A stretch of DNA of 60,997 nt, filler included. It is 7 parts of 7 records of this genome, joined end to end, with 100 filler letters (N's around TTAATTAATTAA, not from the genome) between each part and the next. Parts side by side here need not be neighbours in the genome. Positions count along the whole stretch, not along the records: positions 16,132 to 36,065 come from SRR20825010_5621; 6 more parts are not named here. The stretch is one strand, 5' to 3'. A program made the translations under genes and the position numbers. Numbering within the stretch: the first letter of the stretch is position 1; each line of letters begins with the position of its first letter. The notes beneath the pieces are model-generated. The model had not been told where the DNA came from and searched no databases. It was given only the letters and a program-made list of their open reading frames with translations. Below are positions 1,339-39,630 of this stretch, piece by piece.

Positions 1339-3273
1339 ATGAATTTTTCGCTGGCGCATATTCTCGCGCTTTCAAGCCTTATTGCGTTTTTACCGACCGC
1401 ACAAGCAAACGAACCTGCTGATCAATTACCTATCGAAGTGTTCGCTAAACTGCCGCAGTTCTCGAACCCTCAACTCTCGCCTGACGCACAGTTTATCGCC
1501 TACATAAGCCCGATCAACGGTCGCAGAAACCTCATCATCCGGCCGCTTGACCAAGCGGGGAAACCAGAGGCCATCCCCCCCGTTGAGGATACCGATATCT
1601 CATGGTTTCGGTGGGCGAATAATGACCGCCTGCTGGTCTCCTACCGATATTCCGATAGTTGGGATAACAATTCCTATGTACGCACGGCCCTGTTTTCGGT
1701 GCACAAGAGCGAACCCGGATATGTCAACATGGCCAAAGAGCCGAAGGCGTACAAACGCAATCCTTTCGCACGCAAACCGCCACAAATCAGGGACAAGGTC
1801 GTAGATTTCCTGCCCGACGACCCTGATCACGTCCTGCTCGCCATCGATTCCGATTATGATGCACGAGCGGAAATCCGCCGTGTGAAGGTTGAGAATGGAG
1901 CCTTCAGCAATGTTACGGAAGGCTACGACTGGATCAACACCTGGTATGTCGACAAAAACCACGAATATCGTCTCGGTTTCGGAGGTAGCCCCAAAGGCCT
2001 TCGCATCCTCTATATCGACCCTGACACTAACGATCATGAGGAAATTCAGGACACAAGCTGGCTTGAGGACAACGGTGTTCATCTGATTACCTTCACAGAC
2101 GACCCTCGCATTATGTATGCGCTTGAGCCCAATGATCGTGGCTTGAGGCGGCTCATCACCTTCAATGTTCAAGAAGGTGAACGGGCAGCCATTCTGTTTG
2201 AGCATCCCACAGTTGACGTAACCGGCATCGCAAAGGACCCAGAAACAGGCGACTTTGTCGGGGTGCGATATAATGATGACCTGCCACGGGTAAAATATTT
2301 TGATGCGGAACTTGCTGCCCTACAGGCACAGCTCAACCAACTTATCCCCGGCGGCTCAAATGAGATCGTCAGTCGCAACAAGACGGCAGGGCTTTATCTC
2401 ATCCGCCATATCAGTGACCGAGAGGAAACCTATTACGCGCTCGATATGCAGTCACAAAACCTCTCTCGCTATACGGATGCGGTTCCGATACCCGCCAACC
2501 ATCTGGTAAGTACACAGAAACATGCCGTGCCAATGCGAGACGGCAGCTTTATCGAAGCATACCTTACCTCCCCCCGCGGTACGCAGTCTGAGAACCTGCC
2601 TCTCATAGTCATGCCTCATGGTGGTCCCTACTCACGCGATGACAACCGATACAACTATTTCGCCCAGTTTCTGGCGAACCGGGGGTACGCAGTCCTCAGA
2701 CCCAACTTCCGTGGATCAACAGGGTATGGACACTATTTTGAGGCCGCTGGCTACGACCAGTGGGGTGGGCTGATGCAGGACGACGTAACCGATGCCACCC
2801 GCTGGGCGATAGAGGCAGGCATTGCAGATGCACAGCGCGTCTGCATTGTCGGTGGCTCTTATGGTGGTTATGCGGCCCTTATGGGCGCTGTTAAAGAACC
2901 CGACTTATATGCCTGTGCGGCTTCACTGAATGGTGTCTCCGATCTTGTCATGCAGGAAGACCGGCTGAAAGACTTTTTTGGCCGCAGAGATTTCGCAAAA
3001 AAAATTGGCCTTAAAGGCCACAACACCAAGGATGTCTCCCCGTATCACCAAGCGGCTAGAATCAAATCACCCGTGATGATACTGCACGCCGAAGACGACC
3101 CGGTGGTGCCATTTGTTCATGGTGAGAAAATGTATAAAGCACTGGCCCGCTTCAAGAAGGATGTGACCTTTGTGCCACTTCGTAGTGCTGATCATTTTTT
3201 CGATACCGAACAATCACGCCGCGACATGCTGGCCGCGCTTGAAAAATTCCTCACCAAACATATCGGAAACTAA
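1339..3273 (+). CDS. Secreted S9 family (prolyl oligopeptidase/dipeptidyl aminopeptidase-like) peptidase
   Basis: Signal peptide (MNFSLAHILALSSLIAFLPTAQA), propeller-like region, PHGGP, NFRGSTGYG, GGSYGG nucleophile, downstream Asp (AEDDPVV) and His (ADHF). Confidence 0.9.
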   Translation: MNFSLAHILALSSLIAFLPTAQANEPADQLPIEVFAKLPQFSNPQLSPDAQFIAYISPINGRRNLIIRPLDQAGKPEAIPPVEDTDISWFRWANNDRLLVSYRYSDSWDNNSYVRTALFSVHKSEPGYVNMAKEPKAYKRNPFARKPPQIRDKVVDFLPDDPDHVLLAIDSDYDARAEIRRVKVENGAFSNVTEGYDWINTWYVDKNHEYRLGFGGSPKGLRILYIDPDTNDHEEIQDTSWLEDNGVHLITFTDDPRIMYALEPNDRGLRRLITFNVQEGERAAILFEHPTVDVTGIAKDPETGDFVGVRYNDDLPRVKYFDAELAALQAQLNQLIPGGSNEIVSRNKTAGLYLIRHISDREETYYALDMQSQNLSRYTDAVPIPANHLVSTQKHAVPMRDGSFIEAYLTSPRGTQSENLPLIVMPHGGPYSRDDNRYNYFAQFLANRGYAVLRPNFRGSTGYGHYFEAAGYDQWGGLMQDDVTDATRWAIEAGIADAQRVCIVGGSYGGYAALMGAVKEPDLYACAASLNGVSDLVMQEDRLKDFFGRRDFAKKIGLKGHNTKDVSPYHQAARIKSPVMILHAEDDPVVPFVHGEKMYKALARFKKDVTFVPLRSADHFFDTEQSRRDMLAALEKFLTKHIGN

Positions 3274-3353
3274 AACACCTGCTTGCGGTAGCAGGTTCAA
3301 CTCGCGCCAACCTTAAACTATTGTTGTATTTTTCTATTGGGGGATCACACAAA

Positions 3354-5312
3354 ATGACCATTAACCGACTGAAGCAATGCATCTGCGCATTTGCTTTTAC
3401 AGCTCTTTTAGGCAGCCCAAGCGCTTTAGCGGCAGACCTTTTGCCCGCTAGCGCCTATGCATCGTTACCCAACATGCAATCGGTAAAAATGTCGCCAAAC
3501 GCGCAGCAGATTGGCTATCTCACCCACGACGGCGGCCGGATTGTGCTGGTCCTTGAAAATATTGACCGCACCGACAGAGTTATGGTGCCCCCGCTTGAAA
3601 AGGCAGATATCGCCACCTTCTACTGGGCTAACGACGAGCGTGTTCTTATCGTTTATGAACTGTCTGGTAGCTACCGCGGTATCTCAGGACAATATACAAT
3701 GACACGGCTTGTTGGCATCGACAGGGACGGCACCAATGCGTCATGGATTGTCAAAAACCACACGGAGAAGAAGGGTGGGTCTACCGCCGGCAGGATCGAG
3801 TTCGACCCTGCCCAGCTCCAGCATGACATCCTGGATATCCTGCCGGACGAACCTGATCATATATTGCTTTCGCTGGATGCAGATCACGACGGTGCCTATG
3901 AAGTCAGAAAGCTGAATGTTAACGACGGTGACTATGATATCGTCCAGCGGGACCGTCGCGGCATTCAAAACTGGTACGCAGACCACACCGGTGAAGTCCG
4001 CTATGGCTCAGGATATATTGCCGGTACCAGCGACTATATAAGCTCCCTCCGTGATGCAGACGGGAACTGGTTTGCGCTCAAAAAGACAGAATGGGCGAAC
4101 CGGTATAACGTTCGCGGTTTTGACGAAAATCCCAACGTTATTTTTGTCTCCGGCCCCAGTCGCTTCGGCACCAAAGGGCTTTACAAGCTCAATCTCATTT
4201 CCGGCGCGATCATTGAAACAGTGTTTGAAGATGAGCATTATGACATCGGCGGCGTTTTGGATCATCCGGAAACCGGGAAAGCGGCAGGGTATTTTTACAC
4301 ATCCGACGTGAGCCACGTGGTATATTTCGACAAGACGATGCACAAGGTTCAAGGCGCGATCAACAAAGCCTTGCCCGACACAACGAACCACATATATAGC
4401 AAGGCAAAAGGCGCTCACACCTACCTTATTTTCTCTGACAGCCCAACCGATCCCGGTGTCTACTATTGGCTGGATTTCAAGACCAAGGAGATGAAAACTC
4501 TCGGCTCCTACATGCACGGCATCGATCCGGCGATGTCCAGCCCTGCCATGCCAGCGACTATACCGGTGCGAGACGGCACTAGCATACCAGGCTATGTAAC
4601 CATGCCGAAGGGCAAGGAAACCGCAAAAGGCTTGCCCGCTGTTGTGCTGGTACACGGTGGCCCCTGGGCGCGCGACACTGCCGACTGGGACTGGTGGGCA
4701 CAGTTCCTTGCCAGCCGTGGCTATGTTGTGTTGCAACCCAATTTTCGGGGGTCAACAGGTTACGGCCCTGCTTTTGAAAGGGCGGGCGACTCGCAGTGGG
4801 GTGGCCTTATGCAGGATGACGTGACAGACGCAACGCAGTGGCTCATCAAACAAGGCATCGCTGATAAAGACAACGTCTGTATCGTAGGAGCGTCCTACGG
4901 TGGTTACGCTTCCCTGATGGGCGTAATCAAGGAGCCCGGTTTATATAAATGTGCCGTTTCAATTAATGGCGTCACCGATCTGCCTCGGCTCATCGCTGAA
5001 GACAAATACAACGTCATCGGCGGCCGCGACTGGGTGAAGAAGATCGGCCTTGAAGGTGCATCATCGAGCGATGTCTCACCCTATCATCGATCCGAAGGTG
5101 TCAGTGCGCCAGTGCTACTGATGTCATCTAAGGACGATACCCGCATCGACTATGGCGTATCGGAAGCCATGCACAAGCGTCTCGCCAAGCTGGGCAAGGC
5201 CAGCCGTTACGTGATGATTGAAGACGGTGGACACCATATGGATACGGCAGAATCCCGCCTTACCGTACTAACGGAAATGGAAAAATTTCTCGCAACCCAG
5301 ATTGGGCGCTAA
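3354..5312 (+). CDS. Secreted S9 family peptidase (tandem paralog)
   Basis: Signal peptide ending ALA-AD, VHGGP, NFRGSTGYG, GASYGG, KDDTRI, GGHH; same architecture as the upstream gene. Confidence 0.9.
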   Translation: MTINRLKQCICAFAFTALLGSPSALAADLLPASAYASLPNMQSVKMSPNAQQIGYLTHDGGRIVLVLENIDRTDRVMVPPLEKADIATFYWANDERVLIVYELSGSYRGISGQYTMTRLVGIDRDGTNASWIVKNHTEKKGGSTAGRIEFDPAQLQHDILDILPDEPDHILLSLDADHDGAYEVRKLNVNDGDYDIVQRDRRGIQNWYADHTGEVRYGSGYIAGTSDYISSLRDADGNWFALKKTEWANRYNVRGFDENPNVIFVSGPSRFGTKGLYKLNLISGAIIETVFEDEHYDIGGVLDHPETGKAAGYFYTSDVSHVVYFDKTMHKVQGAINKALPDTTNHIYSKAKGAHTYLIFSDSPTDPGVYYWLDFKTKEMKTLGSYMHGIDPAMSSPAMPATIPVRDGTSIPGYVTMPKGKETAKGLPAVVLVHGGPWARDTADWDWWAQFLASRGYVVLQPNFRGSTGYGPAFERAGDSQWGGLMQDDVTDATQWLIKQGIADKDNVCIVGASYGGYASLMGVIKEPGLYKCAVSINGVTDLPRLIAEDKYNVIGGRDWVKKIGLEGASSSDVSPYHRSEGVSAPVLLMSSKDDTRIDYGVSEAMHKRLAKLGKASRYVMIEDGGHHMDTAESRLTVLTEMEKFLATQIGR

Positions 5313-6271: not shown

Positions 6272-8107
6272 TTACCAACCACAGGTACGGTTTGCATTTT
6301 GCTCATCAAGCCAAACCTTAAGCGGCTCGAAATAGGCGATGATTGCATCACCGCTCATCTCGCGGCTGCCAGTGAAGGCTTCAAGCGCTTCCGGCCACGG
6401 CTTCGATGCACCCATTTCCATCATGGCATTAAACTTGGCACCCACTTCCTTGTTGCCGTAGATCGAGCATTCAGCAAGCGGCCCCGTCCAGCCCGCCTGA
6501 TCACAGGCTGCTTTGTAGAACTGGAACTGAAGGATGCGGGCGAGGAAATAACGCATATAAGGCGTGTTGCCGGGAATATGATACTTGGCACCCGGGTCAA
6601 AGGCATCAGCCGGGCGCTCATTTGGTGCTTTCAGGCCCTGGTATTCTTCCCGAAGTTTCCACCAGGCATCGTTATACTGGTCGGGCGTCACCTCGCCGGA
6701 GAAAACCTGCCAGCGCCATTTATCAACCATCAAACCAAACGGCAGGAAGGCCACTTTATCCATCGCCTGACGCAAGAGCGCCGGGATCGGGTCGCTGCTG
6801 GCGGGCACTTCTTCGATCAGACCAATCTGCTTGAGGTAATCCGGTGTCATCGACAGCGCGACCATATCGCCAATAGCTTCATGGAAGCCATCATTGGCCC
6901 CGTTCTGGTGCAGCGGGCTTTGGTCCTTATAAGCACGCTGATAGAAGTTATGACCAAGCTCATGGTGCACGGTCACAAAATCCTCACCATTCACTTTAGT
7001 GCACATCTTGATGCGCACATCGTCCTTGCCATCAATGTTCCAGGCTGATGCGTGGCACTGCACTTCGCGGTCCGCTGGCTTAACGAACAGCGAACGATCC
7101 CAGAAGGTATCCGGCAGCGGTTCAAACCCCAGCGAGGTGAAGAACCCCTCTGCGGTTTTTGCCATCTTCTTGGCGTCATAGCCTTTTTCAACCAACTTGC
7201 TGGTCACGTCGATGCTGCCACCTGCAGTACCTTCAGGCTGCACGACCGGGTATATGTTGCCCCACTCCTGCGCCCACATATTACCCAGAAGATGCGCTGG
7301 GATCGGGCCACTATCCGGTACCACACGGTCACCGTAAAAATCTGAAAGCTTGGCCCGAACGTGACAATGCAGCGCGTCATAAAGCGGCTTCACGTCACCC
7401 CACATTTCATCAACCATCGCGGCGAAAGCATCGGGGTCCATATCATAGCCACCACGCCACATGGCGCCGACATCCTTGTAGCCAAGCTCGCTCGCACCCT
7501 CATTGGCAATATCCACCATGCGGGCATAGTCGTCTTTCATTGGCTTGGAGATTTTATGCCAGCCATCCCACGCGGCCAAAAGGCGCTCCGGCGTGCGGTC
7601 TTCCGCCATAATATCCGACACCTGGCCAAGCGACAGAGTCTCGCCTTCCATCTCCACCTTGCCAGTGCCGTAAGTGGCATCAAGGTTGGCTTTAATGGTT
7701 GCCAGCTCCGCCGTTTTCTCTGCATCATCCGGGGCTGGCAAAGTTAGTGCCGCCTTGAGGATGGTCATTTTACGCGCAAGCTCGGGCGGCAGGTCAAGCC
7801 CGTCAAATCGTTTTGCCTCATTGGCAAGCTTGACACCCAGCAAGGTGAAGGCCTCATCAGCCTCGGCTACGATAATGTTTGTGTCTGCTGTAATAAAGTT
7901 GGCTTGCACCCAGGCCTTGCGGCTGAAGCTTTTACCCTCGTCAGAAAGCTTCTGCTCAGCCTCACGCATGAAAGCCTCGGCTTCAGCAACCGTTGGTACC
8001 GCAGTTTTCGATGCATCTGCCTCATTTTCGCTTTTCTCGCCGCATGCGGTGAGCGAAAGCGCAACTGTCAGCGCAATAACTGATATCCCTGATTTCCACT
8101 GTGCCAT
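6272..8107 (-). CDS. Peptidase M2 (angiotensin-converting-enzyme-like peptidyl-dipeptidase), probable lipoprotein
   Basis: Lipobox LTAC, PAHLLGNMWAQEW, CHASAW, HHELGH zinc motif, GANDGFHEAIGD, FDPGAKYHIP. Confidence 0.93.
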   Translation of the reverse strand: MAQWKSGISVIALTVALSLTACGEKSENEADASKTAVPTVAEAEAFMREAEQKLSDEGKSFSRKAWVQANFITADTNIIVAEADEAFTLLGVKLANEAKRFDGLDLPPELARKMTILKAALTLPAPDDAEKTAELATIKANLDATYGTGKVEMEGETLSLGQVSDIMAEDRTPERLLAAWDGWHKISKPMKDDYARMVDIANEGASELGYKDVGAMWRGGYDMDPDAFAAMVDEMWGDVKPLYDALHCHVRAKLSDFYGDRVVPDSGPIPAHLLGNMWAQEWGNIYPVVQPEGTAGGSIDVTSKLVEKGYDAKKMAKTAEGFFTSLGFEPLPDTFWDRSLFVKPADREVQCHASAWNIDGKDDVRIKMCTKVNGEDFVTVHHELGHNFYQRAYKDQSPLHQNGANDGFHEAIGDMVALSMTPDYLKQIGLIEEVPASSDPIPALLRQAMDKVAFLPFGLMVDKWRWQVFSGEVTPDQYNDAWWKLREEYQGLKAPNERPADAFDPGAKYHIPGNTPYMRYFLARILQFQFYKAACDQAGWTGPLAECSIYGNKEVGAKFNAMMEMGASKPWPEALEAFTGSREMSGDAIIAYFEPLKVWLDEQNANRTCGW

Positions 8108-26235: not shown

Positions 26236-27246
26236 TCAGCTTTTTTGTCCCAGGCGTTTGCCGTTATTTTGACGTTGAAGCATTTCCGTCCAATCTGCGG
26301 CGAGATTTTCAAGATATCGTGCGAATCCATCGCCCGCGATCAGAGCGGTCTCTGTTCCATATTCCTTGTGCAACTCGGACAGAACGCCGCGGGTTTCCAG
26401 AACCTTCCGCATGACAGCAACAAGGCTCTTCACAGTATCATCCGGTATGTCGCGCGGCCCGAAAAGCCCGTGATCAATTCCAAATGTCAGCCCATTGGCC
26501 TCACCACCGAGCGTCGGCACACCAGATAGCATGCCCGGCTCAAACGCCCCACTGACCGCGAGCACACTAAGTTCTTTCCCCTTGCTTCGGGCAGCAGCAG
26601 CCCTGAGAGAGATAAAGCCCGCTACACCCGGGGGGCCACTCACCAAATCCCGATGACGCGCCAGCCCGGTCGGATAGCTCCGGATTCGGAAACGCACGCC
26701 GAGGGCCTCTTCCATCCTCAGAAACAGCATTTGTTCCAGTGGATCTTCCACCAGGGCGAAAGTGACGCTCTCTGGTTTGTCTCTAAGCTGGGCGAGCATG
26801 CCGGAAAAGCTCGGCGGCTCGGATTCCTGACCTTTCGGAGCCGCAGGAGGCGCCCCACCAGTCGACAGCGCAATTGCCAACGGAGTCCGGGTCAACAAGG
26901 CGATCGGCTTGAAATCGCGCCAATCGGTCTTGCCTTTGTCGAGCATCTCGAACGCCACCTGAATCTGCGAGTCGAGCATCAGGGTACACCCGTTCGGCGC
27001 CGCATCCTCGAGCAACCGGCGGGCAATATCACGGGGCCGGTTGCGCACCCGGAAGGTGCTGCCGCCGAGTTTCGTCGCAGCCTCGGCGACGGCGCGGCCG
27101 ACCAGATCCCCGGCAGAGCCAACGGCGGACGGTACGATAATGGAAACCGTAAGACAGGAAAGCTCTTGTGCCCGGGCATCCTCCGGGCGCGTTCCCAGCG
27201 CCAGGACGGTCATAATCACAAGCATCAGGAACTGAAACGGTCTCAT
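26236..27246 (-). CDS. Divergent TctC/Bug-family periplasmic binding protein
   Basis: Signal peptide; IIVPSAVGSAGD, APNGCTL, DFKPIALLTRTP, GVPTL, GLFGPRDIP align with the neighbouring TctC. Confidence 0.78.
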   Translation of the reverse strand: MRPFQFLMLVIMTVLALGTRPEDARAQELSCLTVSIIVPSAVGSAGDLVGRAVAEAATKLGGSTFRVRNRPRDIARRLLEDAAPNGCTLMLDSQIQVAFEMLDKGKTDWRDFKPIALLTRTPLAIALSTGGAPPAAPKGQESEPPSFSGMLAQLRDKPESVTFALVEDPLEQMLFLRMEEALGVRFRIRSYPTGLARHRDLVSGPPGVAGFISLRAAAARSKGKELSVLAVSGAFEPGMLSGVPTLGGEANGLTFGIDHGLFGPRDIPDDTVKSLVAVMRKVLETRGVLSELHKEYGTETALIAGDGFARYLENLAADWTEMLQRQNNGKRLGQKS

Positions 27247-27393
27247 TGTACTCCCACTCGGCTGGCGCCCCACTATACCCGGCCCCGGATCATCGTCCAG
27301 CGGCACCAATAATCTCGAACATTTGACCTGTAAGGATTTTCCGCTACAGAAGGGCGGCGGACTTAACGTGTGATTGAAACGAGGGAAACAGAA

Positions 27394-28209
27394 ATGGCGG
27401 GGAATATGAAGGTCGGAATCGGCGGACTGGGTGCAATCGGCCTGACACTGGCCCGCGCGATCACAGACGGCCGCCTGCCGGGCCTAGAACTTGGCGCCGT
27501 TTCTGCCCGCAACGTTGAAAAAGCTCAGAAAAACCTGACATCCATTGGTGCCAGCGCGCCTATCGTGTCTCTGGAAGCATTGGCGGAATCCTGCGACGTC
27601 GTCGTGGAGTGCGCTCCGGCTTCGGTCTTTCCGGTCATCGCGGAAGCGGCCATCGCCAAGGGACGGGTCTTTATTCCGGTCAGCATCGGCGCTCTGCTCA
27701 ACCACATGGAGCTTGTTGACAAGGCGAAAGAAACCGGCGCCCGGCTCATTCTGCCGACCGGCGCCCTGATTGGTCTGGATGCCGTGCGCGCCGCTTCGGA
27801 AGGCACCATCGCATCCGTGACCCTCGAAACCCGGAAGCCGCCACGCGGTCTCGCCGGCGCCCCTTATCTTGTTGAGAACGACATCTCTGTCGAGGGACTG
27901 ACTGACGCGAAAAAGGTTTTCGAGGGAAATGCCCGGGCCGCCGCCAAAGGCTTCCCGGCCAATGTCAATGTTGCGGCAGCTCTCAGCCTTGCGGGTATCG
28001 GTCCGGACCAGACCAGCGTCGAAATTTGGGCTGATCCGTCCGTCACCCGGAACACCCATACAATCAGGGTCGAAGCGGACAGCGCACGCTTCACCATGAC
28101 GATCGAGAATATTCCGACAGAAGAGAACCCGAAGACGGGCAAAATCACGGCACTCAGTGTGATTGCAACCCTGCGTCGCCTGAACGCGCCATTAACCGCA
28201 GGAACGTGA
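27394..28209 (+). CDS. nadX: L-aspartate dehydrogenase family
   Basis: GLGAIG Rossmann motif, VVECA, SIGAL, GALIGLD, RKPP, FEGNAR.AAKGFPANVNVAA, NTH, ENPKT. Confidence 0.9.
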   Translation: MAGNMKVGIGGLGAIGLTLARAITDGRLPGLELGAVSARNVEKAQKNLTSIGASAPIVSLEALAESCDVVVECAPASVFPVIAEAAIAKGRVFIPVSIGALLNHMELVDKAKETGARLILPTGALIGLDAVRAASEGTIASVTLETRKPPRGLAGAPYLVENDISVEGLTDAKKVFEGNARAAAKGFPANVNVAAALSLAGIGPDQTSVEIWADPSVTRNTHTIRVEADSARFTMTIENIPTEENPKTGKITALSVIATLRRLNAPLTAGT

Positions 28210-28241
28210 CCGCCGGTCCCAGCTGACAACCGGGCAGGCGG

Positions 28242-30740
28242 CTAGCTAAGCAGATTGAGCATGCCGCCGCCGCCGCTGATATTCTGGAAGAGGCCAACCA
28301 AAGCTGCGTTCTTGGGCTGCACTGTGGTGCTGCCCCCGATCGCTTCCAGATCCTTCTTTACCAGATACTGCTCAATGAACTTGATCGCGTAATTCGTGTT
28401 CTCTAGCGGCTTCAGGAAATCGAGGTTCTCAGCCGATCCGCTGGTATTGCTGAGCGCTGACTGTTTCTCGCTTAGAATCGATTGCTGGATATTCAGCGTG
28501 AACTTCTCGGCATTGATCCGGCTCAGCGTCGAGCCGACCGAGAACAACGCATCGTTCAGGATACTCTCACGCGATGCCGCCGCCCCACCGCTCACGGCGG
28601 CATACTGAAGCGAACTCAGGGAGTTTTCGAATTCTTCCTTGAAGCCACCCTGCGCATCGACCGTGATTGTCGTCGCTAGCGTCCCGAGAACGACCTTAAG
28701 GTCTCTCCCGTATTCTTTGAGAAGGTTGTCCCCGCTCTCGCCGGCACGTTCGATAATTTCGTCCAGATCGCCCCGAATCTGACGGATTTCAGCATCGATA
28801 GAGCCAAGCGGATCCGCTACATTCGCCGCGAAATCAAAAACTTTCCGATCCGTGACCAGGTTGTCTTTCAACTCGGAAAGAGAGTCCGTTACCGTCGTGT
28901 CGATGTTGCTCAGAATACCGTTCGCGTTTGCTGCGGAAAGGTTGGCGGGCAAGCCACCAAGAATATCGGCATCCAGAGAACCGCCCCGGGCATCAATGCT
29001 TTTCCCGGAATTTGCATCAGCCTCATAGCTGATCGTTCCGCTGGTTAACAGATTGTCGAATGTGAATGTGTTCGTTCCGTCTGTCGCCGAACCGGCGTTG
29101 TTGATCAGCGATGTCAATTCATCAAGTTTTGCGCCGTATTTCGCGTTCAAGTCGTCGATATCAGCGTCTTCCGCCTGAGCATCCAGTGCCAGCGCACGAA
29201 TCTCGGAGATCACGCCCGCAGCTTTGGCGAGGCGCGTAAGGCTGTCATCGACCGCAGAAATCCCTTGGGACAGAGACTGGGTATTCAGAGAGTAGCCGAA
29301 ATTCACGCTCTTCACGCTGCCGGTGAAACTGGAAGCGTTAACGCCATTCTGAATATTCGCGGATTTGAAATCCTTTTCGATCGAATCGAAATCGGCCTCG
29401 GCCGCCGCAATGCCGGAAGACAGGCTCCCCAGATTGATTGCCTGAAAAGCCGTGTTCGCATTATCCAGATTTGTCAGAAAATCGGAAAGATCCGAAGAAC
29501 CAGTCACAACCGCAGTGCCATCCGCCTTCACGACTGTCGTCACCTTGGTTGACGGCAGGGCATCGATCCCGCTCCCCGCATCTCCTGACGGTAACAGCAG
29601 ATTTTCGGTCGTTCCCGCAGCGCTATCGGTGTAATTCGACCCCTTGATGAAACCGTCAGCGTCGGTGATTTCGGATACCAACCGGTCGAACTCGCTCTTC
29701 AGCGCATCAAGCTCTTCCTGGGTTTCAACCTCGGCCGCTTCCTTGAAGATCGCATCAATGCGCTTAATGTTTGTGTCTGTGTTGGTCAGTGCCTTTTCGG
29801 CGGATGCTATCAGCCCCTGCTGACGGATCAGCTCCGGGATTGCCGCTTCCTGAACCGGGATTTCGTCCGCAAGAACCCCGCCCGGATCCGTAACATTATC
29901 GATATCCAGCAAATGGATGCGAAGAGTCTCAAGCTGATCCTGCAGGGAAGACAGCTCAACACTTGCGTTGGTGGTTGCGGCAAGTCCGGTTTTGATGGCG
30001 CTCAGATCGTCGTTGACCAGATCGAGTTGAGTCTTGGAGGCACTTTCCCCGTCCCGGTCCAACGTGTTCAGCTTGTCAAAATCAAGTTTAGCATCGATCA
30101 GGGATTGCTGCTTGAGCACGGATTGATTGGCTATCTGAGCCGGCAGGCTAAGAGCCGTCGTCACGATGTTACGCAGCGGCAGATCGCCAAGAATTTCGAG
30201 TGCGCTATCAACTTCATTGATACGCCGCAGGAAAAACACCGCCTCGCGTGCCGCCGGGCTTTCAAGTCCGATTGAAACCTCAAACGCGTTGGTCAGATAA
30301 TCATCAATGACCTCGGTCTGCGCGTCAGCCGACTGTAGCTTTGTAAAGCCTTCATTCTCGACGTTCAGGAACTTCGTAAACTCACCGTAGCGCGCATCGG
30401 CCAGCCGGTTCGAGTAGGAATTCGGATCATCCGGATCACTGTTTATGATCGCTTTCAGCTTGCCGGGATTATTGAGTTCCGATTCCAGACCAAAGGCCGT
30501 CAGAACGAATTCGAGAGTTTTCCGGTCCGCCAGAAAATCCTCAACCGACTTGATCTCGCTCGCGCTCGACTGAAAATTTTTGATGCTTTTCTGAACAGCC
30601 GCGCTTTCATAGAAATCGCGGCGCGCACCTTCGGGGTCCCGCTTGTATTTTGCGAAAGCAGCAACACCCGTCGTGGTCCCGCCACTGCTGGTGCTGTAAG
30701 ATCCACCCAAAATGCTCAATGCGGCGGCTGCGTTAGTCAT
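28242..30740 (-). CDS. DUF1217-family flagellar-associated protein with a large flagellin-like insertion (832 aa)
   Basis: aa ~25-225 carry DUF1217-type motifs (IKSVEDFLADRKTLEFVLTAFGLE, SDPDDPNSYSNRLADARY, YLTNAFEVSIG, ILGDLPLRNIVTTALSLP, KQQSLIDAKLD); the terminal helix KFIEQYL is displaced to aa ~787; the interval has repeated helical modules ending in NLL. Confidence 0.75.
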   Translation of the reverse strand: MTNAAAALSILGGSYSTSSGGTTTGVAAFAKYKRDPEGARRDFYESAAVQKSIKNFQSSASEIKSVEDFLADRKTLEFVLTAFGLESELNNPGKLKAIINSDPDDPNSYSNRLADARYGEFTKFLNVENEGFTKLQSADAQTEVIDDYLTNAFEVSIGLESPAAREAVFFLRRINEVDSALEILGDLPLRNIVTTALSLPAQIANQSVLKQQSLIDAKLDFDKLNTLDRDGESASKTQLDLVNDDLSAIKTGLAATTNASVELSSLQDQLETLRIHLLDIDNVTDPGGVLADEIPVQEAAIPELIRQQGLIASAEKALTNTDTNIKRIDAIFKEAAEVETQEELDALKSEFDRLVSEITDADGFIKGSNYTDSAAGTTENLLLPSGDAGSGIDALPSTKVTTVVKADGTAVVTGSSDLSDFLTNLDNANTAFQAINLGSLSSGIAAAEADFDSIEKDFKSANIQNGVNASSFTGSVKSVNFGYSLNTQSLSQGISAVDDSLTRLAKAAGVISEIRALALDAQAEDADIDDLNAKYGAKLDELTSLINNAGSATDGTNTFTFDNLLTSGTISYEADANSGKSIDARGGSLDADILGGLPANLSAANANGILSNIDTTVTDSLSELKDNLVTDRKVFDFAANVADPLGSIDAEIRQIRGDLDEIIERAGESGDNLLKEYGRDLKVVLGTLATTITVDAQGGFKEEFENSLSSLQYAAVSGGAAASRESILNDALFSVGSTLSRINAEKFTLNIQQSILSEKQSALSNTSGSAENLDFLKPLENTNYAIKFIEQYLVKKDLEAIGGSTTVQPKNAALVGLFQNISGGGGMLNLLS

Positions 30741-30792
30741 CGAACCCTCTGCTTCTGCTTGTTTTATGCAGATACATTAACAAAAATTAACA

Positions 30793-30808
30793 TGCACAAA
30801 ACGGGCCA
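30793..30808 (-). promoter_or_regulatory. Sigma54 (-24/-12) promoter of the DUF1217 gene
   Basis: Minus strand TGGCCCGTTTTGTGCA = GG-N10-GC, ending 52 nt before the ATG, in an AT-rich intergenic region. Confidence 0.65.
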
Positions 30809-30943
30809 TCTCTTCTGAGATCGCAAAACACATAGCATTTTTTTCTGCAAACTACAATGCAAGATAGAGTCTCGCGCAATTGCACCCGCGGGCATCCTGC
30901 GATTATAGTTGCCGCCCTTCCAACCCCCCCTCGTGGACCCGCC

Positions 30944-32725
30944 ATGTTTACCACCAGACCCGAAATACGCGGCACCTTCGGTGTCGTTGCCTCTACGCAC
31001 TGGCTTGCTTCTTCGGCCGGCATGGCGATCCTTGAACGCGGCGGAAATGCATTCGATGCCGCGGTCGCAGCCGGTTTCGTGCTGCAGATCGTCGAGCCGC
31101 ATCTGAACGGCCCTGGCGGTGACCTGCCATTGATCATGCACAGCGCCAAACAGAACCGCACACAGGTAATCTGCGGTCAGGGACCGGCGCCGAAAGCCGC
31201 GACGATCCCGGCGATCCGCGACCTCGGACTCGATCTGATCCCCGGCAGCGGCCTGCTTGCGGCCGTGACACCGGGCGCCTTCGATACCTGGATGCTGATG
31301 CTGCGGGACCACGGCACCATGGGCCTCGGCGACGTTCTGGAATATGCCATTGGCTATGCCCGTAATGGCTATCCTGTCGTGTCGAAAATCACCGACACAG
31401 TCGAGACCGTGCGCGGGCTTTTCGAAACCGAATGGCCGACCTCGGCTGCGATCTATCTGAAAGACGGCAAGGCGCCAACACCGGGCGCTTTGTTCTCCAA
31501 CCCGAAGCTGGCCGATACCTACGAGCGGATCGTGCGTGAAGCGGAAACGGGTGGCGGAAACCGCGAAGCCCAGATCGACCGGGCACGGGATATCTGGTAT
31601 CGTGGCTGGATTGCGGAAACCATCGACCGGTTCTGCCGGGATGCCTACATGGACGCGACCGGCCGGCGCCATAAGGCCCTGCTCACCGGAGACGATCTTG
31701 CAAGCTGGTCGGCGACGTATGAAGATGCGCTGACCTACGACTATGGCCGCTATACCGTTGCGAAATGCGGCGCCTGGAGCCAGGGGCCCGTCATGCTGCA
31801 GCAGCTGTCCCTGCTGAAAGCCATGGGCATTGCCGACATGGACCCGACAGGCCCTGATTTCGTTCATGCCGTAACAGAAACCTCCAAGCTCTCCTACGCC
31901 GACCGCGAGGCCTATTACGGTGACCCTGACTTCGTCGATGTGCCGATGGAAACGCTGCTGAGCGACGCATATGCGGAAAGCCGCCGGGCGCTTGTTGGCA
32001 AAGACGCGTCCGACGCGTTCATTGCCGGTACCATCGAAGGCTACAGCAACAATATATCCCACTCCCTGCTGCCGCATGCTCAGGACATTTCCGGTGCCGG
32101 CATGGGCGTTGGCGAGCCGACCGTCGGCAAGATGGGAGAGGCCCGGGGCGACACGGTTCATATCGACATTATCGACAAGCACGGCAACATGGTCTCGGCT
32201 ACGCCCAGCGGCGGTTGGCTGCAAAGCTCGCCGATCATTCCCGAACTCGGCTTCTGCCTCGGCAACCGGGCACAGATGTTCTGGCTGGAGGAAGGCTCGC
32301 CTTCCACTCTGGCGCCGGGCAAGCGCCCGCGCACCACACTGTCGCCTTCCTTCGCGCTGCGTGACGGCGAGGCCTATATGCCATTCGGCACGCCGGGCGG
32401 AGACCAGCAGGACCAATGGTCGCTCTTATTGTTCCTGCACCATGCGGATCACGGCATGAACCTGCAGGAAGCGATCGACTGCCCGGCCTTCCACAACGAG
32501 CATTTCCCGAGTTCGTTCTGGCCGCGCGGCCGGATCAACAAGCGTCTGGTGCTGGAAGACAGGTTCCCGCAGGAGACCTATGCCGAACTGCGCCGCCGTG
32601 GGCACGATCTGGAGGTCGGCGATCCCTGGTCGGAGGGCCGTCTGACGGCGGCGGCCAAGGATGGGGATATGCTGCGAGCCGCCGCCAACCCGCGCGGCAT
32701 GCAGGGATATGCCGTCGGCCGCTAA
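30944..32725 (+). CDS. Gamma-glutamyltransferase family Ntn-hydrolase (cytoplasmic type)
   Basis: GGNAFDAAVA, VEPHLNGPGGD, DTVH (Thr nucleophile), PGKRPRTTLSP, FGTPGGDQQDQ; no signal peptide. Confidence 0.92.
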   Translation: MFTTRPEIRGTFGVVASTHWLASSAGMAILERGGNAFDAAVAAGFVLQIVEPHLNGPGGDLPLIMHSAKQNRTQVICGQGPAPKAATIPAIRDLGLDLIPGSGLLAAVTPGAFDTWMLMLRDHGTMGLGDVLEYAIGYARNGYPVVSKITDTVETVRGLFETEWPTSAAIYLKDGKAPTPGALFSNPKLADTYERIVREAETGGGNREAQIDRARDIWYRGWIAETIDRFCRDAYMDATGRRHKALLTGDDLASWSATYEDALTYDYGRYTVAKCGAWSQGPVMLQQLSLLKAMGIADMDPTGPDFVHAVTETSKLSYADREAYYGDPDFVDVPMETLLSDAYAESRRALVGKDASDAFIAGTIEGYSNNISHSLLPHAQDISGAGMGVGEPTVGKMGEARGDTVHIDIIDKHGNMVSATPSGGWLQSSPIIPELGFCLGNRAQMFWLEEGSPSTLAPGKRPRTTLSPSFALRDGEAYMPFGTPGGDQQDQWSLLLFLHHADHGMNLQEAIDCPAFHNEHFPSSFWPRGRINKRLVLEDRFPQETYAELRRRGHDLEVGDPWSEGRLTAAAKDGDMLRAAANPRGMQGYAVGR

Positions 32726-33121: not shown

Positions 33122-33628
33122 GTGAAGAAACTCATCATCTTCGTCACCCTGCCGCTGATGCTCATTGTCGGCGCTGGAATGGGGGCAGTGATGTTCGGGC
33201 TGATTCCGGGATTCGATCCGCTCGGAACACAGAAAAAAAACGGCATGGCCAACGCGAACAGCGAGCCGAAAGAAGAGCCCTTTCTGAACGAGGCACCGCC
33301 GACATTCGCATCCTCCCCGCCCGGCGCCATTAACTTTCAGCTTGAAGAGTTCGTTATCAATCTGCAGACCGAACGGCATTATCCGATCTTCATGCTGCTC
33401 AGTGTCGCCTTGGAACTCAAGGATCAGGCGGCACAGGTCCGGGTGAGTGCTCTTGAGCCGCGCATCAGGGACAAGGTGATCATCTTCGCCAGCAGCCTGA
33501 CCGAACAGGAACTGAGAGGATTCGACGGTATCAATAAAATCAGGGACGGACTCTGGGTCCGGCTGCGCCAGATCATCGCCAAGGAGGATCTGCTGAATGT
33601 GCAGATCCTGAAGATGACAATCAAATAG
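33122..33628 (+). CDS. fliL: Flagellar basal body-associated FliL family protein
   Basis: Single N-terminal TM, LEEFVINL, LSVALE, PRIRD...L.EL.G.DG. Confidence 0.82.
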   Translation: MKKLIIFVTLPLMLIVGAGMGAVMFGLIPGFDPLGTQKKNGMANANSEPKEEPFLNEAPPTFASSPPGAINFQLEEFVINLQTERHYPIFMLLSVALELKDQAAQVRVSALEPRIRDKVIIFASSLTEQELRGFDGINKIRDGLWVRLRQIIAKEDLLNVQILKMTIK

Positions 33629-35261: not shown

Positions 35262-36065
35262 ATGTCCCTCCGCCTCAAACTGATCGGCGCATTTCTGGTG
35301 GCCGTGCTGGCCGCAGGCGCTCTGGCGGGAACCAGTTTTTTTGCCACATGGTCCCTCGGCGACATCGCCAAGGCACTGTATGACCGGCCGCTGCAATCGA
35401 TCAATTTCGCCCGTTCGGCCCAGACCAATTTCCTAGTCATGGAGCTGGAGGAACGGCTGACCGGGGCCGCGACGGAAGAGCACCTTGCCAAATTGCGCGA
35501 GGATTTCTTCATCGACCTTGAAGTTGCCACGGACCGCCGGATGTCCGAACGGACGCTCGAGCTCGCGGAAATCCTGCACACGGATTTCGAGGCATGGTGG
35601 GACGTTGCCCATGCGGCAAGAAACGACCCGGCCATAAAGCCCGATCGCGACGCCATCGCAGACAGGATCAAGGTCAATCTGGACATCCTGGTGCAGGTTG
35701 CCGCCGAAGACGGATACCGCTTCTGGCTCGCTGCCGAGCAAAGCGTCAACGACACCAAACGGCTGACCAGCTACATCCTCGCCGGCGTGCTTGTCGTCTC
35801 GCTGATCGTCGCCGGCTTGCTTGCCCGCAACATCATCCGCCCCCTGAACCGGTTGGCCAAGGGCACCATCTCCCTCGCCTCGGGAGACCGTTCCGTCGCC
35901 GTCGATGAGCGCGACCAGGCCCGGGGTGACGAGATCGGCGGCATGGCGCGCTCCCTGCTGGTGTTCCGCGACGTCATGAACGAAGTGCGCGAGGCACGGG
36001 ACAGCGCCGAGGCCGCCGCCAAGGCGAAGTCGGACTTCCTGGCCATGATGAGCCATGAGATCCGC
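35262..36065 (+). CDS. Membrane sensor histidine kinase (TM, periplasmic helical bundle, TM, HAMP, HisKA), 3' truncated
   Basis: Two TM segments, HAMP (IIRPLNRL...RGDEIGGMARSL), AKSDFLAMMSHEIR H-box at the contig edge. Confidence 0.9.
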
Positions 36066-36165
36066 NNNNNNNNNNNNNNNNNNNNNNNNNNNNNNNNNNN
36101 NNNNNNNNNTTAATTAATTAANNNNNNNNNNNNNNNNNNNNNNNNNNNNNNNNNNNNNNNNNNNN
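36066..36165. other. Artificial contig spacer
   Basis: 44 N + TTAATTAATTAA + 44 N. Confidence 0.99.
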
Positions 36166-37771
36166 CGCGGACATGTCCGCGGGGGCGATCGACCATGCAG
36201 AGGCTAAGCGCCGCCGTGAAACTGAACAACAAGAGACAACCTTTTTCGGGTCTCTCGACGGCGCGTCGAAATTCGTCAAGGGCGACGCAGTTGCCGGCCT
36301 TTTGATCACCATATTGAACCTCGTCATGGGGATCATCATGGGCACCGTAATGCATGGTATGCCGCTGAGTAGCGCGCTTGAAACTTATGCGATCCTGACC
36401 GTGGGTGACGGGTTGGTATCCCAAATTCCGGCTGTGATTATTTCGATTGCAGCGGGTCTCTTACTGGCACGTGGGGGGGCGACCGGGGCAACGGACGTTG
36501 CCGTGGCAGCCCAACTCGGGCGACATCCCTCGGCGCTCTTGGCGGTTGCCGTGCTGATGGTGCTTTTTGCGCTGGTTCCGGGCCTGCCCTTTGTGCCCTT
36601 CATTCTTGGCGGCGGGGTTCTTGGCGGGACGGCCTGGTGGTTGTCCAGACGCCCCCCTGAAACAGAAGACAGCACAGAAGCTGCTGAGGAAGAGCCTGGG
36701 CCAACCGTTCAGCACATGGGCGACGTCCTTGATTTGGACGATATCCATGTCGAATTTGCACCCGATCTGGTCAATATGGTGTTGGATCCGGGCACTGGAC
36801 TGGACGTCAGAATAGCCAACATGCGGCGTCACATTGCGTCAAATTTCGGCCTCGTCCTGCCAGAGATCCGGCTGACGGACGCCCCTTCTTTGCCGACCGG
36901 CACCTATGTGATCCGCATCCACGGAGTCGAAATGGCGCGGGGTGAGTTGAATCCCGACTTCGTTCTTGCACTTTTGCCGGAGTTCAGCGGTGCTCTGCCG
37001 CAGGGACGTGACGTTTCCGAACCAGTCTACGGTGCGCCCGCACGCTGGTTGCGGCCCGAGGATCAGGAAAAAGCCGCGATCACCGGAGCGACCATCGTCT
37101 CACCGACCGAGGTGTTGGCAACGCACTTGCTTGAAGTTATCCGCCGCAACTTTGGTCGACTTCTGACGTTGAAGGCGCTGCGCCGTCTGCTGGATGAAAT
37201 GGTTTCTCTCAGCAATCAGTCCCGTGCCGAAGCAAATCGCAAGCTGCTGGATGAGCTGATCCCGGACAAAGTGCAAATCGACACCCTACTTCAGGTGCTG
37301 CGGCTCTTGTTGGATGAACAGGTTTCGGTGCGCAACCTACCGTTGATCCTTGAGACAATTGCCGAAATGCGGGGCCAGCAATCCCAGGCCGAGGCTATCT
37401 GTGAACATGTGCGTCAGCGCCTAGGCTTTCAGCTTGTGGCAGGGATGCGACGCGATGACGGGACTATTCCACTCGTCCAACTTGCCCCGGAATGGGAAGA
37501 AACCTTTTTGTCGTACCAAGTTGAAAGTAGCCAAGGCGCGCTGGACGTTGCATTGCCGCCGGACAAGTTTGAGGCGCTCACCAGCGGCCTGGCGGAAACC
37601 ATTGGCGAAGCGGCTAACCGGGGTGTCTCTGCCGCCGTGGTCACCTCTGCCCGACGCCGAAGATTCTTGCGCACGGTTATGGTTGCCAAGGGCCTCAATG
37701 CGCCGGTCATGTCCTATGAAGAAATTGGGTTGGAGGCACGGCCTGCACTGGTTGGGGTAGTGGCCGCGTGA
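36166..37771 (+). CDS. flhA: Flagellar export protein FlhA, 5' truncated
   Basis: FFGSLDGASKFVKGDAVAG, LTVGDGLVSQIPA, LLDEQVSVRNL, VMSYEEI. Confidence 0.96.
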
Positions 37772-38535
37772 CCGCACTGCACCCTCTGATGGAACATTTT
37801 TCAGGCGGGCTGTGGCTTTCACTGGTGGTGTTTCTCCGGGTTGCAGCGACTCTTGCGGCCCTTCCCGGCTTGGGTGAACAGGTCATTTCCGTCCGAGTCC
37901 GTCTTGTCATCGCAATCATGTTGACTGTGATTGTCACGCCGGCCGTCGCACCGGGGATCGACCTGCCGGACCCAACGCTTGGTGCGTTTGTGATGGTGCT
38001 GGCCACGGAAACGCTCAGCGGGCTGTTTCTGGGAATAATGCTGCGGCTGTTCATTCTAGCCATTCAGACTGCCGGGGCAATGGCCGCGCAATCCACCTCA
38101 CTTTCGCAGCTTTTGGGGGGATCGGGGCTCGATCCGCTGCCGGCCATCGGCCATATCCTCACCACGGCGGCGCTGGCGCTTTTGATGGCGACCGGCTTTC
38201 ACATAAAGGCTGCGTCCTTCCTGATCCTGTCGTACGAACTGCTGCCAGCGCTGCAATTTCCAAATCCAGCCGATGTGGCCGACGCCGGGCGTCATCGCGT
38301 AGGGCAGAGTTTCGCGTTGGCGTTTACCCTTGCCGCGCCGTTTGTCCTGATGTCGGTGATCTACAACCTGACGTTGGGCGTTATCAACAAGGCGATGCCC
38401 CAGCTTATGGTGGCGTTTGTCGGTGCGCCTGTCATTACGTTCGGGGCAATCGCGCTATTGATGATCTCGGCCCCGATCCTGCTTTCGGTCTGGTTACATG
38501 CCTTTGACGGCTTTCTTGCCGCGCCCTTCAGGTAG
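37768..38535 (+). CDS. fliR: Flagellar export protein FliR
   Basis: VFLRV...LPG.GE, GVINKAMPQL.V.FVGAP; GTGA overlap with flhA. Confidence 0.93.
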   Translation: MTALHPLMEHFSGGLWLSLVVFLRVAATLAALPGLGEQVISVRVRLVIAIMLTVIVTPAVAPGIDLPDPTLGAFVMVLATETLSGLFLGIMLRLFILAIQTAGAMAAQSTSLSQLLGGSGLDPLPAIGHILTTAALALLMATGFHIKAASFLILSYELLPALQFPNPADVADAGRHRVGQSFALAFTLAAPFVLMSVIYNLTLGVINKAMPQLMVAFVGAPVITFGAIALLMISAPILLSVWLHAFDGFLAAPFR

Positions 38536-38541
38536 ATCTCC

Positions 38542-39630
38542 ATGTCGCAGCAAGACGATTCGGCGGAAAAGAGTCACGAACCCTCTGAGCGAAAACTCGA
38601 TCAGGCCCGAAAAAAGGGCGAAATCCCGCGCGCGCCTGACATTCTGACAGCGATGGCCTACCTTGGCATGTTGATCTGCATGGTGGCGCTGGGTGGTCCC
38701 GGTCTGTCGCAATTTGCGGATTCTCTGTTGCCACTGTTGGAACAGCCCGACCGGCTGGAGGCCCTGTTCTTTGAGGATGGCGCGCCCGCAATGGTAGGTT
38801 CCGTAATGTCGGCGGCCCTGACGCCTACGTTGCCTTTTCTCGCGGTGCCCGGGCTGTTTGTCCTTCTGACGCTTTTTGCAACTCGCGGGGTGCTATTCAC
38901 CGGGTCGAAATTGGCACCCAAGGCATCGCGCATCAACCCGATAGAGAACGCCAAGAACAAGTTCGGTCGTCGGGGTCTGTTCGAGTTCTTCAAGAGTTTC
39001 GTCAAACTGAGCGTTTATTCCATCCTTCTCGCGGTATTTTTGCGTGGCAAACGGGATGTGATCATTGGTGTGATCATGGGTACGCCGGGCGAGGTTGTCC
39101 TGAGCATGACCAGCCTCATTCAGCAGTTTCTGTTCATCGTTGTTCTGATTGCAGTGGTTATAGGTGGAATCGACTTGTTCTGGCAACGCGCTGAACACAT
39201 TCGCAAAAACCGGATGACGATGAAGGAGTTGCGCGACGAAATGAAGGAATCCGAGGGCGATCCGCACCTAAAACAACACCGCCGCATGCGTGCTCAAGAA
39301 CTGGCGTTGAACCAGATGATGGGTGAGGTTCCGAAGGCGGATGTGATCATCGTCAACCCGACCCATTTTGCTGTCGCCCTGAAGTGGAGCCGGATGGGGG
39401 GATCTGCACCGGTGTGTGTGGCTAAAGGTCAAGACGCCGTTGCGGCGCGCATCCGTGAGGCGGCGAAGGATGCCGGCGTTCCGATCCACTCTGATCCGCC
39501 AACCGCGCGGGCGCTGTACGCCACCACAAAAATCGGCGCGGAGATTGCGGCGGATCACTATCGGCCCGTCGCAGCGGCGATCCGTTTTGCCGACAGTATG
39601 CGTGCCAAAGCCAAGGAGAAGCGCTGGTGA
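38542..39630 (+). CDS. flhB: Flagellar export switch FlhB
   Basis: EKSHEPSERKL..ARKKGEI, KESEGDP, NPTH autocleavage motif. Confidence 0.96.
   Translation: MSQQDDSAEKSHEPSERKLDQARKKGEIPRAPDILTAMAYLGMLICMVALGGPGLSQFADSLLPLLEQPDRLEALFFEDGAPAMVGSVMSAALTPTLPFLAVPGLFVLLTLFATRGVLFTGSKLAPKASRINPIENAKNKFGRRGLFEFFKSFVKLSVYSILLAVFLRGKRDVIIGVIMGTPGEVVLSMTSLIQQFLFIVVLIAVVIGGIDLFWQRAEHIRKNRMTMKELRDEMKESEGDPHLKQHRRMRAQELALNQMMGEVPKADVIIVNPTHFAVALKWSRMGGSAPVCVAKGQDAVAARIREAAKDAGVPIHSDPPTARALYATTKIGAEIAADHYRPVAAAIRFADSMRAKAKEKRW

Follow-up and report, generated by a model that had tools for sequence, protein, structure and literature searches.

We describe a 60,997-nucleotide (nt) stretch of DNA from a marine Nisaea bacterium (the window) and, within it, one minus-strand gene whose product combines a DUF1217 domain with three modules that resemble the D1 domain of flagellin (Table 1). 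Profile comparisons and predicted structures place all three modules inside the DUF1217 domain, and two of them inside the third; we hold this architecture, together with a link between the family and the flagellum, to be very probable. The open reading frame (ORF) and the peptides quoted in an earlier annotation of the same DNA (the original prediction) were located within a few residues of where that annotation had put them. Contigs from the RNA libraries of three studies cover the gene; such contigs show neither strand nor level.

Table 1. Features of the DUF1217-D1 gene and its surroundings (aa, amino acids; pLDDT, predicted local distance difference test; Z, structure-alignment score)
Feature	Positions	Strand	Basis and remarks
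Whole gene	28242..30740	-	832 codons plus stop; 0 Cys, 0 Trp, 1 His, 2 Met
aa 1-22, N-terminus	30675..30740	-	predicted disordered (pLDDT 29-33), yet conserved: N3, A4, A7, L8, L11, G12, G13
aa 23-225, main N-terminal part of the DUF1217 fold	30066..30674	-	Pfam, profile against 2O8S, structure alignment
aa 238-284, predicted first long helix of module A, ND1a position	29889..30029	-	model helix 238-278; antiparallel docking on 721-764
aa 285-484, module B, predicted complete flagellin/FlgL D1-like domain	29289..29888	-	5ziy Z 14.2; pLDDT 92.1; small beta insert 399-414
aa 485-643, module C, predicted complete flagellin D1-like domain	28812..29288	-	4nx9 Z 15.8, 1io1 Z 14.8; hhalign P 0.002; beta insert 569-585
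aa 644-768, predicted remainder of module A (ND1b helix, NLL, beta hairpin, CD1 helix 721-764)	28437..28811	-	most flagellin-like part by sequence
aa 781-832, DUF1217 closing helix 783-800 and conserved, predicted disordered tail ending LNLLS	28245..28400	-	2O8S alignment to 801; tail profile
Conserved GG-N10-GC element TGGCCCGTTTTGTGC	30794..30808	-	54-68 nt upstream of the start codon; sigma-54-promoter-like
fliL-like gene, nearest flagellar gene	33122..33628	+	PF03748, E 4.1e-11; 2.4 kb away

Membership of the DUF1217 family is supported by the Pfam profile PF06748, which matches aa 82-226 along profile positions 1-145 of 149 (E 1.2e-35; 123.4 bits against a cut-off of 22.9), and by a profile of 30 aligned homologs (A1), which aligns aa 11-225 to residues 43-257 of the Protein Data Bank (PDB) chain 2O8S (E 1.6e-36). 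This chain is AGR_C_984 of Agrobacterium tumefaciens, the only solved member of the family. A whole-protein AlphaFold2 (AF2) model, with a mean pLDDT of 81.5, a predicted TM-score (pTM) of 0.62 and most of aa 240-765 above 90, superimposes on 2O8S over 207 residues (Z 20.0; root-mean-square deviation (rmsd) 3.2 Å), model residues 23..801 being aligned to chain residues 55..278. The DUF1217 fold is thereby completed in the model by helix 783-801, which lies beyond the end of the Pfam match at aa 226. A hidden Markov model (HMM) of aa 765-832, run against 24 sequences, matched the extreme C-termini of 9 of the 16 single-domain DUF1217 proteins among them (240-310 aa; domain E < 0.01). Its best match covers residues 229-266 of the 267 residues of one such protein (P0197, E 3.6e-8), most weaker ones fall at the same place, and in these short proteins the tail begins only a few residues from the counterpart of aa 225. 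The superposition and the tail matches together identify aa 226-780, some 555 residues, as a predicted insertion between the last two helices of the DUF1217 domain, in agreement with the displaced closing helix and tail of the original prediction. Short DUF1217 proteins, 2O8S included, share with this protein the domain, by sequence and by fold, as well as the conserved C-terminal helix and tail, and are likewise confined to flagellated alphaproteobacteria in our sample; they differ in being about 245-300 aa long, with the closing helix directly after the main body, whereas here about 555 residues intervene.

The insertion contains two modules whose predicted folds resemble complete D1 domains. 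Below 2O8S, most of the Foldseek list for the model consists of flagellins and FlgL, with weak E-values. Module C (model residues 481-643) aligns with Pseudomonas aeruginosa FliC (4nx9; Z 15.8, rmsd 2.4 Å, 151 residues), with Bacillus cereus flagellin (5z7q; Z 15.8) and with the Salmonella F41 flagellin fragment (1io1; Z 14.8), and module B (model residues 285-484) with FlgL of B. cereus (5ziy; Z 14.2, rmsd 3.0 Å, 173 residues) and of Xanthomonas campestris (5zj0; Z 13.9). Because Z values of this size can occur by chance in helical bundles, module B was also folded alone from an alignment of 20 sequences (A2), giving a pLDDT of 92.1 and a pTM of 0.86, and was compared with 48,161 PDB representatives without Foldseek. 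The top 16 entries were all flagellin or FlgL (four of them FlgL), at Z 11.9-13.8 with 158-180 of the 200 residues aligned; generic helical bundles reached at most Z 11.3, with 131-148 residues aligned. Whole flagellin chains align to model residues 232..768 solely at an rmsd of about 20 Å, which is uninformative. Sequence comparison with flagellins by hhalign gave P 0.002 for module C and a non-significant P 0.047 for module B. A language-model look-up of aa 226-780 placed Flagellin_N clusters among its nearest sets (13 of 30 matches, score 0.91), which we treat as a lead only.

Once modules B and C are set aside, the helices left over in the AF2 model (238-278, 644-665, a hairpin at 681-694, and 721-764) appear to be what a third D1 domain, module A, would need, with B and C sitting in its first inter-helix loop. 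Module A would thus comprise residues 238-281 and 644-768. Its second part carries the strongest sequence signal in the insertion. By hhalign, aa 644-768 match residues 111-229 of 20 flagellins from Nisaea and Thalassobaculum, a span that holds the second helix, the hairpin and the return helix (P 8.9e-6; reversed control P 0.16), and the A1 profile, run over 151 genomes, matched true flagellin ORFs in four of them (G090, G006, G147, G010) at profile positions 587-762, with E-values from 8.7e-7 to 7.9e-4. Adding helix 606-642 to aa 644-768 lifted the hhalign score by only 1.5, which locates the signal outside this helix; in line with the model, we prefer to assign the helix to module C as its return helix. 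The first helix is harder to place by sequence: helix 236-282 aligns with flagellin residues 57-103, the position expected for ND1a, without reaching significance (P 0.24). In a two-chain prediction, aa 644-772 and aa 232-292 associated with an interface score (ipSAE) of 0.79 (0.79, 0.81 and 0.79 in separate runs; best of three controls 0.01); in the calibration of the tool, 51 of 78 solved complexes attained this mark, as did 2 of 108 mismatched pairs. Contacts agree between the runs to at least 93%, with a partner pLDDT of 79 or more. In the docked arrangement, helix 238-281 packs antiparallel on 721-764 (pairs 749-253, 742-256, 739-263 and 732-270) and also touches 645-674 and 681-688, which is the arrangement of a flagellin D1. 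This predicted association supports the nested topology, short of proof.

Fold matches, hhalign, profile matches and docking thus support the three D1-like modules, with B and C nested in a split A, that the original prediction had read from the sequence. The NLL motif that it had noted after the second helix of each module is likewise borne out: the Asn at 380, 563 and 672 is invariant in 30 of 30 homologs, and N-[LIVM]-[LIF] follows the second D1 helix in all 20 flagellins of the same genera (18 as F-[ND]-G-x-N), at positions 137-182 as counted in the called ORFs, the starts of several being placed too far upstream. Likeness between the modules themselves was not significant by hhalign (P 0.05-0.3), which speaks against a simple duplication story; two apparent module-to-module matches were rejected as overlaps of the same residues.

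Resemblance to D1 does not make the protein a flagellin. Neither the whole protein nor its pieces matched Flagellin_N (PF00669), Flagellin_C (PF00700), FliD_N (PF02465) or FliD_C (PF07195) in Pfam even at E <= 10, so that the Flagellin_N similarity sought by the original prediction did not appear at that level. The best Flagellin score of a Nisaea homolog was 15.9 bits against a cut-off of 26.6, and one homolog, P0021, carries a precomputed PF00669 label. An NCBIfam search of the protein returned nothing relevant, no flagellin came up when the PDB was searched by sequence with a profile or a single sequence, and no Pfam family of any other system matched the protein. The D0 parts of flagellin profiles were never matched by Pfam, hhalign or the A1 profile, and the termini are unlike flagellin termini, as the original prediction had observed. 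With no D0 and no Pfam flagellin match, the protein is, as judged from its sequence, neither a flagellin nor FlgL nor FliD, and it cannot serve as an ordinary filament subunit.

The points of likeness to flagellin (FliC, FljK) and FlgL (HAP3) lie in the three predicted D1 copies, each with a long helix, a shorter helix, NLL, a beta hairpin and a return helix, in rmsd values of 2.4-3.0 Å over 150-173 aa, in the sequence homology of aa 644-768, in a flagellin-like composition, and in the small insert that B and C each carry at the site of flagellin D2. The differences are the missing D0 helices, the lack of any above-threshold Flagellin_N or Flagellin_C match, and the predicted nesting of the D1 copies within each other and within DUF1217.

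This arrangement belongs to a conserved family. A search of 1.84 billion cluster representatives returned 962 proteins at E <= 0.001, and the 150 matches listed include at least 38 single-stretch full-length relatives of 776-849 aa, with identity down to 25%; this broad occurrence argues that the architecture is that of a family and not an oddity of one genome. Homologs with a named source are 824-840 aa long and are 73-94% identical in Nisaea and about 42% in Thalassobaculum. Three modules are kept in close relatives (the 30-homolog alignment), and module number varies in distant ones, as the original prediction had proposed to check: a C-like module is repeated in P0120 and P0083, and more modules are present in P0065 (936 aa), P0067 (1,611 aa) and L031 (1,679 aa), the lengths of these five ranging over 928-1,679 aa. 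P0084 has two added partial DUF1217 repeats. No natural relative with module A alone was found among those examined; one candidate for a one-module form, P0146 (401 aa), was rejected since its tail looks like the nonsense product of a frameshift. Among P0088-P0207, many proteins (600-1,400 aa) are built from 4-8 partial DUF1217 repeats in tandem, after which comes one complete domain.

The giant L031 protein, from a SAR116 bacterium, shares the family and the neighbourhood of the Nisaea gene, with DUF1217 at aa 82-223, a gamma-glutamyltransferase (GGT) gene upstream and an aspartate dehydrogenase gene downstream; it differs in being twice as long and in its extra beta-rich inserts. Its gene (L031:6786-11822) has Pfam matches to E1_FCCH (E 2.8e-29) and to End_beta_barrel, an endosialidase beta-barrel (E 1.8e-14), and these extra matches suggest beta-rich decoration domains.

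Several observations connect the family with flagella. In an even sample of the class (151 genomes, 100 positive and 51 negative for Flagellin_N), DUF1217 occurs in 21 of the 100 flagellin-positive genomes and in none of the 51 others (Fisher p 7.8e-5, a statistic that ignores kinship). FliD_C was found in 40 genomes, 36 of them flagellin-positive, and the 100 flagellated genomes divide into 2 with both domains, 19 with DUF1217 only, 34 with FliD_C only and 45 with neither (odds ratio 0.14, p 0.003, again ignoring kinship); in one of the two genomes with both, the FliD match is sub-threshold only. These counts bear out the background claim of the original prediction that DUF1217 is tied to flagella and that FliD is often missing, 19 of the 21 DUF1217 genomes being without FliD_C. 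FliD_C is absent from six sampled genomes in which the A1 profile matched a long form (G001, G005, G019, G106, G132, G149) and also from G032, in whose 860-aa DUF1217 frame the A1 profile matched the domain only. Short DUF1217 genes lie about 2-4 kb from flagellin genes in three genomes (G040, G067, G154), and a passage of PMC7410920 on Brucella places a DUF1217 gene between motA and flgF.

Five Nisaea and Thalassobaculum genomes each hold exactly one DUF1217 match, namely this gene. Profile searches of these five found FliD_C, FliD_N and FliS in none, FlaF in all, and 6-7 Flagellin_N matches in each; the absence of FliD had likewise been anticipated. The main flagellar cluster of one of them (L076 and L077, G001:C1:362000-399999) is of Caulobacter type, with genes for an flbD-like sigma-54 activator, fliX, flbT and flaF, and further includes three flagellins, a TPR and GT9 protein like the flagellin glycosyltransferase FlmG, flgK, flgL, DUF1153 and DUF6468. 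A 458-aa ORF in this cluster was rejected as a FlaY-like gene, since it looks like a spurious antisense ORF.

The composition of the protein is also suggestive. Flagellar axial proteins are poor in Cys and Trp and have disordered termini. Given that 26 neighbouring proteins average 1.07% Cys and 1.36% Trp, the chance of finding neither residue here is about 1.3e-9; Cys is absent from 29 of 30 homologs and from 15 of 16 short forms, Trp is absent from 29 of 30 homologs, and flagellins from these genera are biased likewise. At the two ends of the protein (the first 21 and the last 27 residues) the AF2 pLDDT predicts disorder, yet the residues there are conserved in the homolog alignment. These traits, read from sequence, are indirect signs of a predicted export.

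To our knowledge, FliD-less swimming is common in alphaproteobacteria, and how the filament is capped and grows there is known for Caulobacter alone. Work attributed to Kint and Viollier in 2023 reportedly describes FlaY of Caulobacter crescentus as a secreted flagellin polymerisation factor, and FlaY is said to be a beta-propeller, which would make it unrelated to an all-helical protein. FlaY would resemble our protein as a FliD analogue in a FliD-less alphaproteobacterium with a FlaF/FlbT system. The two differ in family: PF06748 was found in none of 14 control genomes, among them Caulobacter vibrioides, itself positive for Flagellin_N and FlaF, and by that test FlaY is not a DUF1217 protein; the equation of the two in the original prediction is therefore not supported. 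The relevant part of a 2026 preprint (PMC13277936) lists FlaY ('FliD analog, C. crescentus') and DUF1217 ('function unknown, S. meliloti') in separate rows, and a 2024 preprint (10.1101/2024.09.25.614892) mentions FlaY as a FliD analogue. Where PMC13277936 and PMC7410920 touch on DUF1217, they give its function as 'unknown', and a full-text literature search for 'DUF1217' returned no description of this nested architecture or of any function.

The surroundings of the gene are metabolic. A divergent GGT gene (30857-32725) lies upstream and a convergent aspartate dehydrogenase gene (27370-28209) downstream, followed by TctC/TctBA transporter genes. The original prediction had drawn on the occurrence of DUF1217 genes in flagellar clusters, which does not hold at this locus, where the gene sits between these two and the fliL-like gene is 2.4 kb off. 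That gene stands one or two genes past GGT here and in four of six related loci scanned (L020, L025, L031, L007). The order GGT, DUF1217-D1 gene, aspartate dehydrogenase and TctC (26236-32725) is conserved from Nisaea through Thalassobaculaceae to SAR116 (L007, L020, L024, L025, L026, L031; central gene 36-73% identical), with the exception of L024, where a fumarase-type lyase gene takes the place of aspartate dehydrogenase.

Upstream of the start codon, the GG-N10-GC element begins 68-74 nt before the ATG across relatives, and a stricter pattern (TGG[CT], 8-9 nt, [TG]GC[AT]) is present there in 13 of 20 sequences, among them that of the window; similar elements precede 4 of 20 flagellin genes. 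The window has a single occurrence of the sigma-54-like pattern where 0.69 would be expected, no significant excess. RNA contigs of two studies end at 30808 and 30812, running through the element, for which a start near 30782 would be expected, and no RNA contig lies over 30816-30912; these ends hint weakly at a transcription start about 70-80 nt before the ATG. A sigma-54 promoter, and co-regulation through it, was not used in our argument, as the contigs extend upstream of the expected start and the pattern is at chance frequency. A purine-rich stretch at 30741-30790 is conserved in L002-L036 (GCAGAAGCAGAGG in Nisaea, GCAGAAACAGGAG in Thalassobaculum) and is distinct from the CCTTAGAA-GAGGA found ahead of flagellin genes in these genera; this purine-rich stretch may be no more than the ribosome-binding region.

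We tentatively propose that the gene encodes a flagellum-specific accessory protein, probably exported by the flagellar type III system, that acts outside the cell on flagellin, likely in a cap-like or polymerisation-assisting way in FliD-less bacteria. That it is exported and binds flagellin seems to us somewhat probable on balance; that it is specifically a cap or polymerisation factor, a role suggested by co-occurrence, composition and domain logic, is a good deal more doubtful. In the predicted architecture the DUF1217 helical domain forms a base, with D1 domain A between its last two helices and the loop between the first and second helix of A bearing the two further complete D1 domains, B and C. 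The D1 copies would present the surfaces that flagellin D1 uses in subunit packing, and by virtue of these shared surfaces the protein could dock on the exposed D1 faces of the last flagellin layer. Once docked, it might help incoming flagellins to fold into place at the growing filament tip, while the DUF1217 base and the conserved, predicted-disordered termini would replace the missing D0. FliD (HAP2) offers the nearest comparison: the proposed job is the same, the protein is found in FliD-less genomes, and it is large and mostly of extracellular type, with predicted-disordered termini. It differs from FliD in lacking any FliD_N or FliD_C similarity, and no FliD chain appears among the 50 matches listed in either structure search.

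This family is a concrete candidate for the cap. Its member is the only DUF1217 gene in all five related genomes checked, which lack FliD and FliS. The proposal would also give DUF1217, whose structure has been solved since 2007 with no function known, a likely field of action on flagellin or the filament. The predicted double nesting, one domain interrupted by a second and this second in turn by two domains of its own type, is rare, and it implies that flagellin D1 is a portable unit that proteins other than axial ones can take up. Within the reach of our searches, this unusual architecture has no published description. More speculatively, and we regard this as unlikely, the family could be a third, hitherto unrecognised kind of filament cap or flagellin polymerase beside FliD and FlaY, built by grafting D1 copies into DUF1217 in marine alphaproteobacteria (Thalassobaculaceae, SAR116 and relatives), of which the short DUF1217 proteins of rhizobial flagellar clusters would be the minimal form.

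A number of points weigh against an accessory protein at the filament tip. The gene is outside any flagellar operon, among metabolic neighbours, and the sigma-54-like element is probably not a promoter, because RNA contigs reach 30808 and 30812. The domain structures are predictions; Z values of 13-16 are within chance reach of helical bundles, the ranking of module B is clean with a modest margin over generic bundles (13.8 against 11.3), and the docking pass may owe something to likeness with solved flagellin D1 structures. Having no D0-like termini, the protein would not insert into the filament in the manner of an axial protein. The opposition between DUF1217 and FliD_C is uncorrected for shared ancestry, and the 45 of 100 flagellated genomes with neither domain argue that DUF1217 is not a general FliD replacement; the cap or junction role of the original prediction is a conjecture. 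Capping may be the work of some other factor, FlaY for instance.

The strongest alternative, which we nevertheless think unlikely, is that the protein is a minor stoichiometric structural part, either a filament-surface or sheath-like decorator or an extra element of the hook-filament junction, binding D1 surfaces of flagellin or FlgL. The architecture, flagellar link and export-like composition serve this explanation equally; the structures nearest to module B are those of FlgL (5ziy, Z 14.2; 4 of the top 16), and module number varies in distant relatives (928-1,679 aa), as outer decoration domains often do. FlgK and FlgL are, however, both present in G001, so no junction part is missing there, and a decorator leaves the near-exclusion with FliD_C (2 of 21) unexplained.

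An improbable alternative is a cytoplasmic flagellin mimic in the FlaF/FlbT control of flagellin synthesis or export that would, for example, titrate away a flagellin-binding factor as long as the hook is incomplete. A regulatory flagellin paralog acts in the FlaF/FlbT circuit of Caulobacter, these genomes have the Caulobacter-type FlbT/FlaF, FlbD and FliX system, and the protein carries three predicted flagellin D1 copies. Flagellin chaperones and regulators bind the C-terminal D0 region of flagellin, however, which the protein lacks, and the strong depletion of Cys, Trp, His and Met seen in the 30 homologs is more in keeping with export than with a cytoplasmic location. That the protein has no flagellar function, and is a generic long-helix surface or storage protein whose D1 likeness and co-occurrence stem from convergence and shared ancestry, is very improbable: metabolic neighbours, a synteny with GGT, aspartate dehydrogenase and TctC kept out to SAR116, the Z values of 13-14 that helical bundles reach by chance, and the non-significant module-to-module and module B-to-flagellin signals would fit it, but the homology of aa 644-768 to true flagellins in two independent tests, three invariant flagellin-type NLL motifs, the absence of DUF1217 from 51 of 51 flagellin-less genomes and the short forms near flagellin genes in three genomes tell against it.

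Elsewhere, the window contains 528 N in several runs from 12688 to 57723, including 36070-36115, which marks it as a scaffold, and adjacency across these gaps is uncertain. One run cuts an HAMP/HisKA kinase ORF (35262-36113) and flhA (36173-37771), which matches the FHIPEP profile at 138-653 only. This flhA, with fliR and flhB, lies at 36173-39630, past the N run and far from the main flagellar cluster, in which G001 has a full-length flhA (711 aa); the window genes may form a second export-gate set or a dispersed one. At 6272-8107 on the minus strand lies a full-length gene for an angiotensin-converting-enzyme-type peptidase M2 (E 2.4e-216, profile 3-581 of 581), adjoining two tandem S9 prolyl-oligopeptidase genes (1261-3273 and 3321-5312), and the end of the window truncates another minus-strand gene, at 60202-60933, which encodes a sigma-54-dependent activator (Sigma54_activat, HTH_8).

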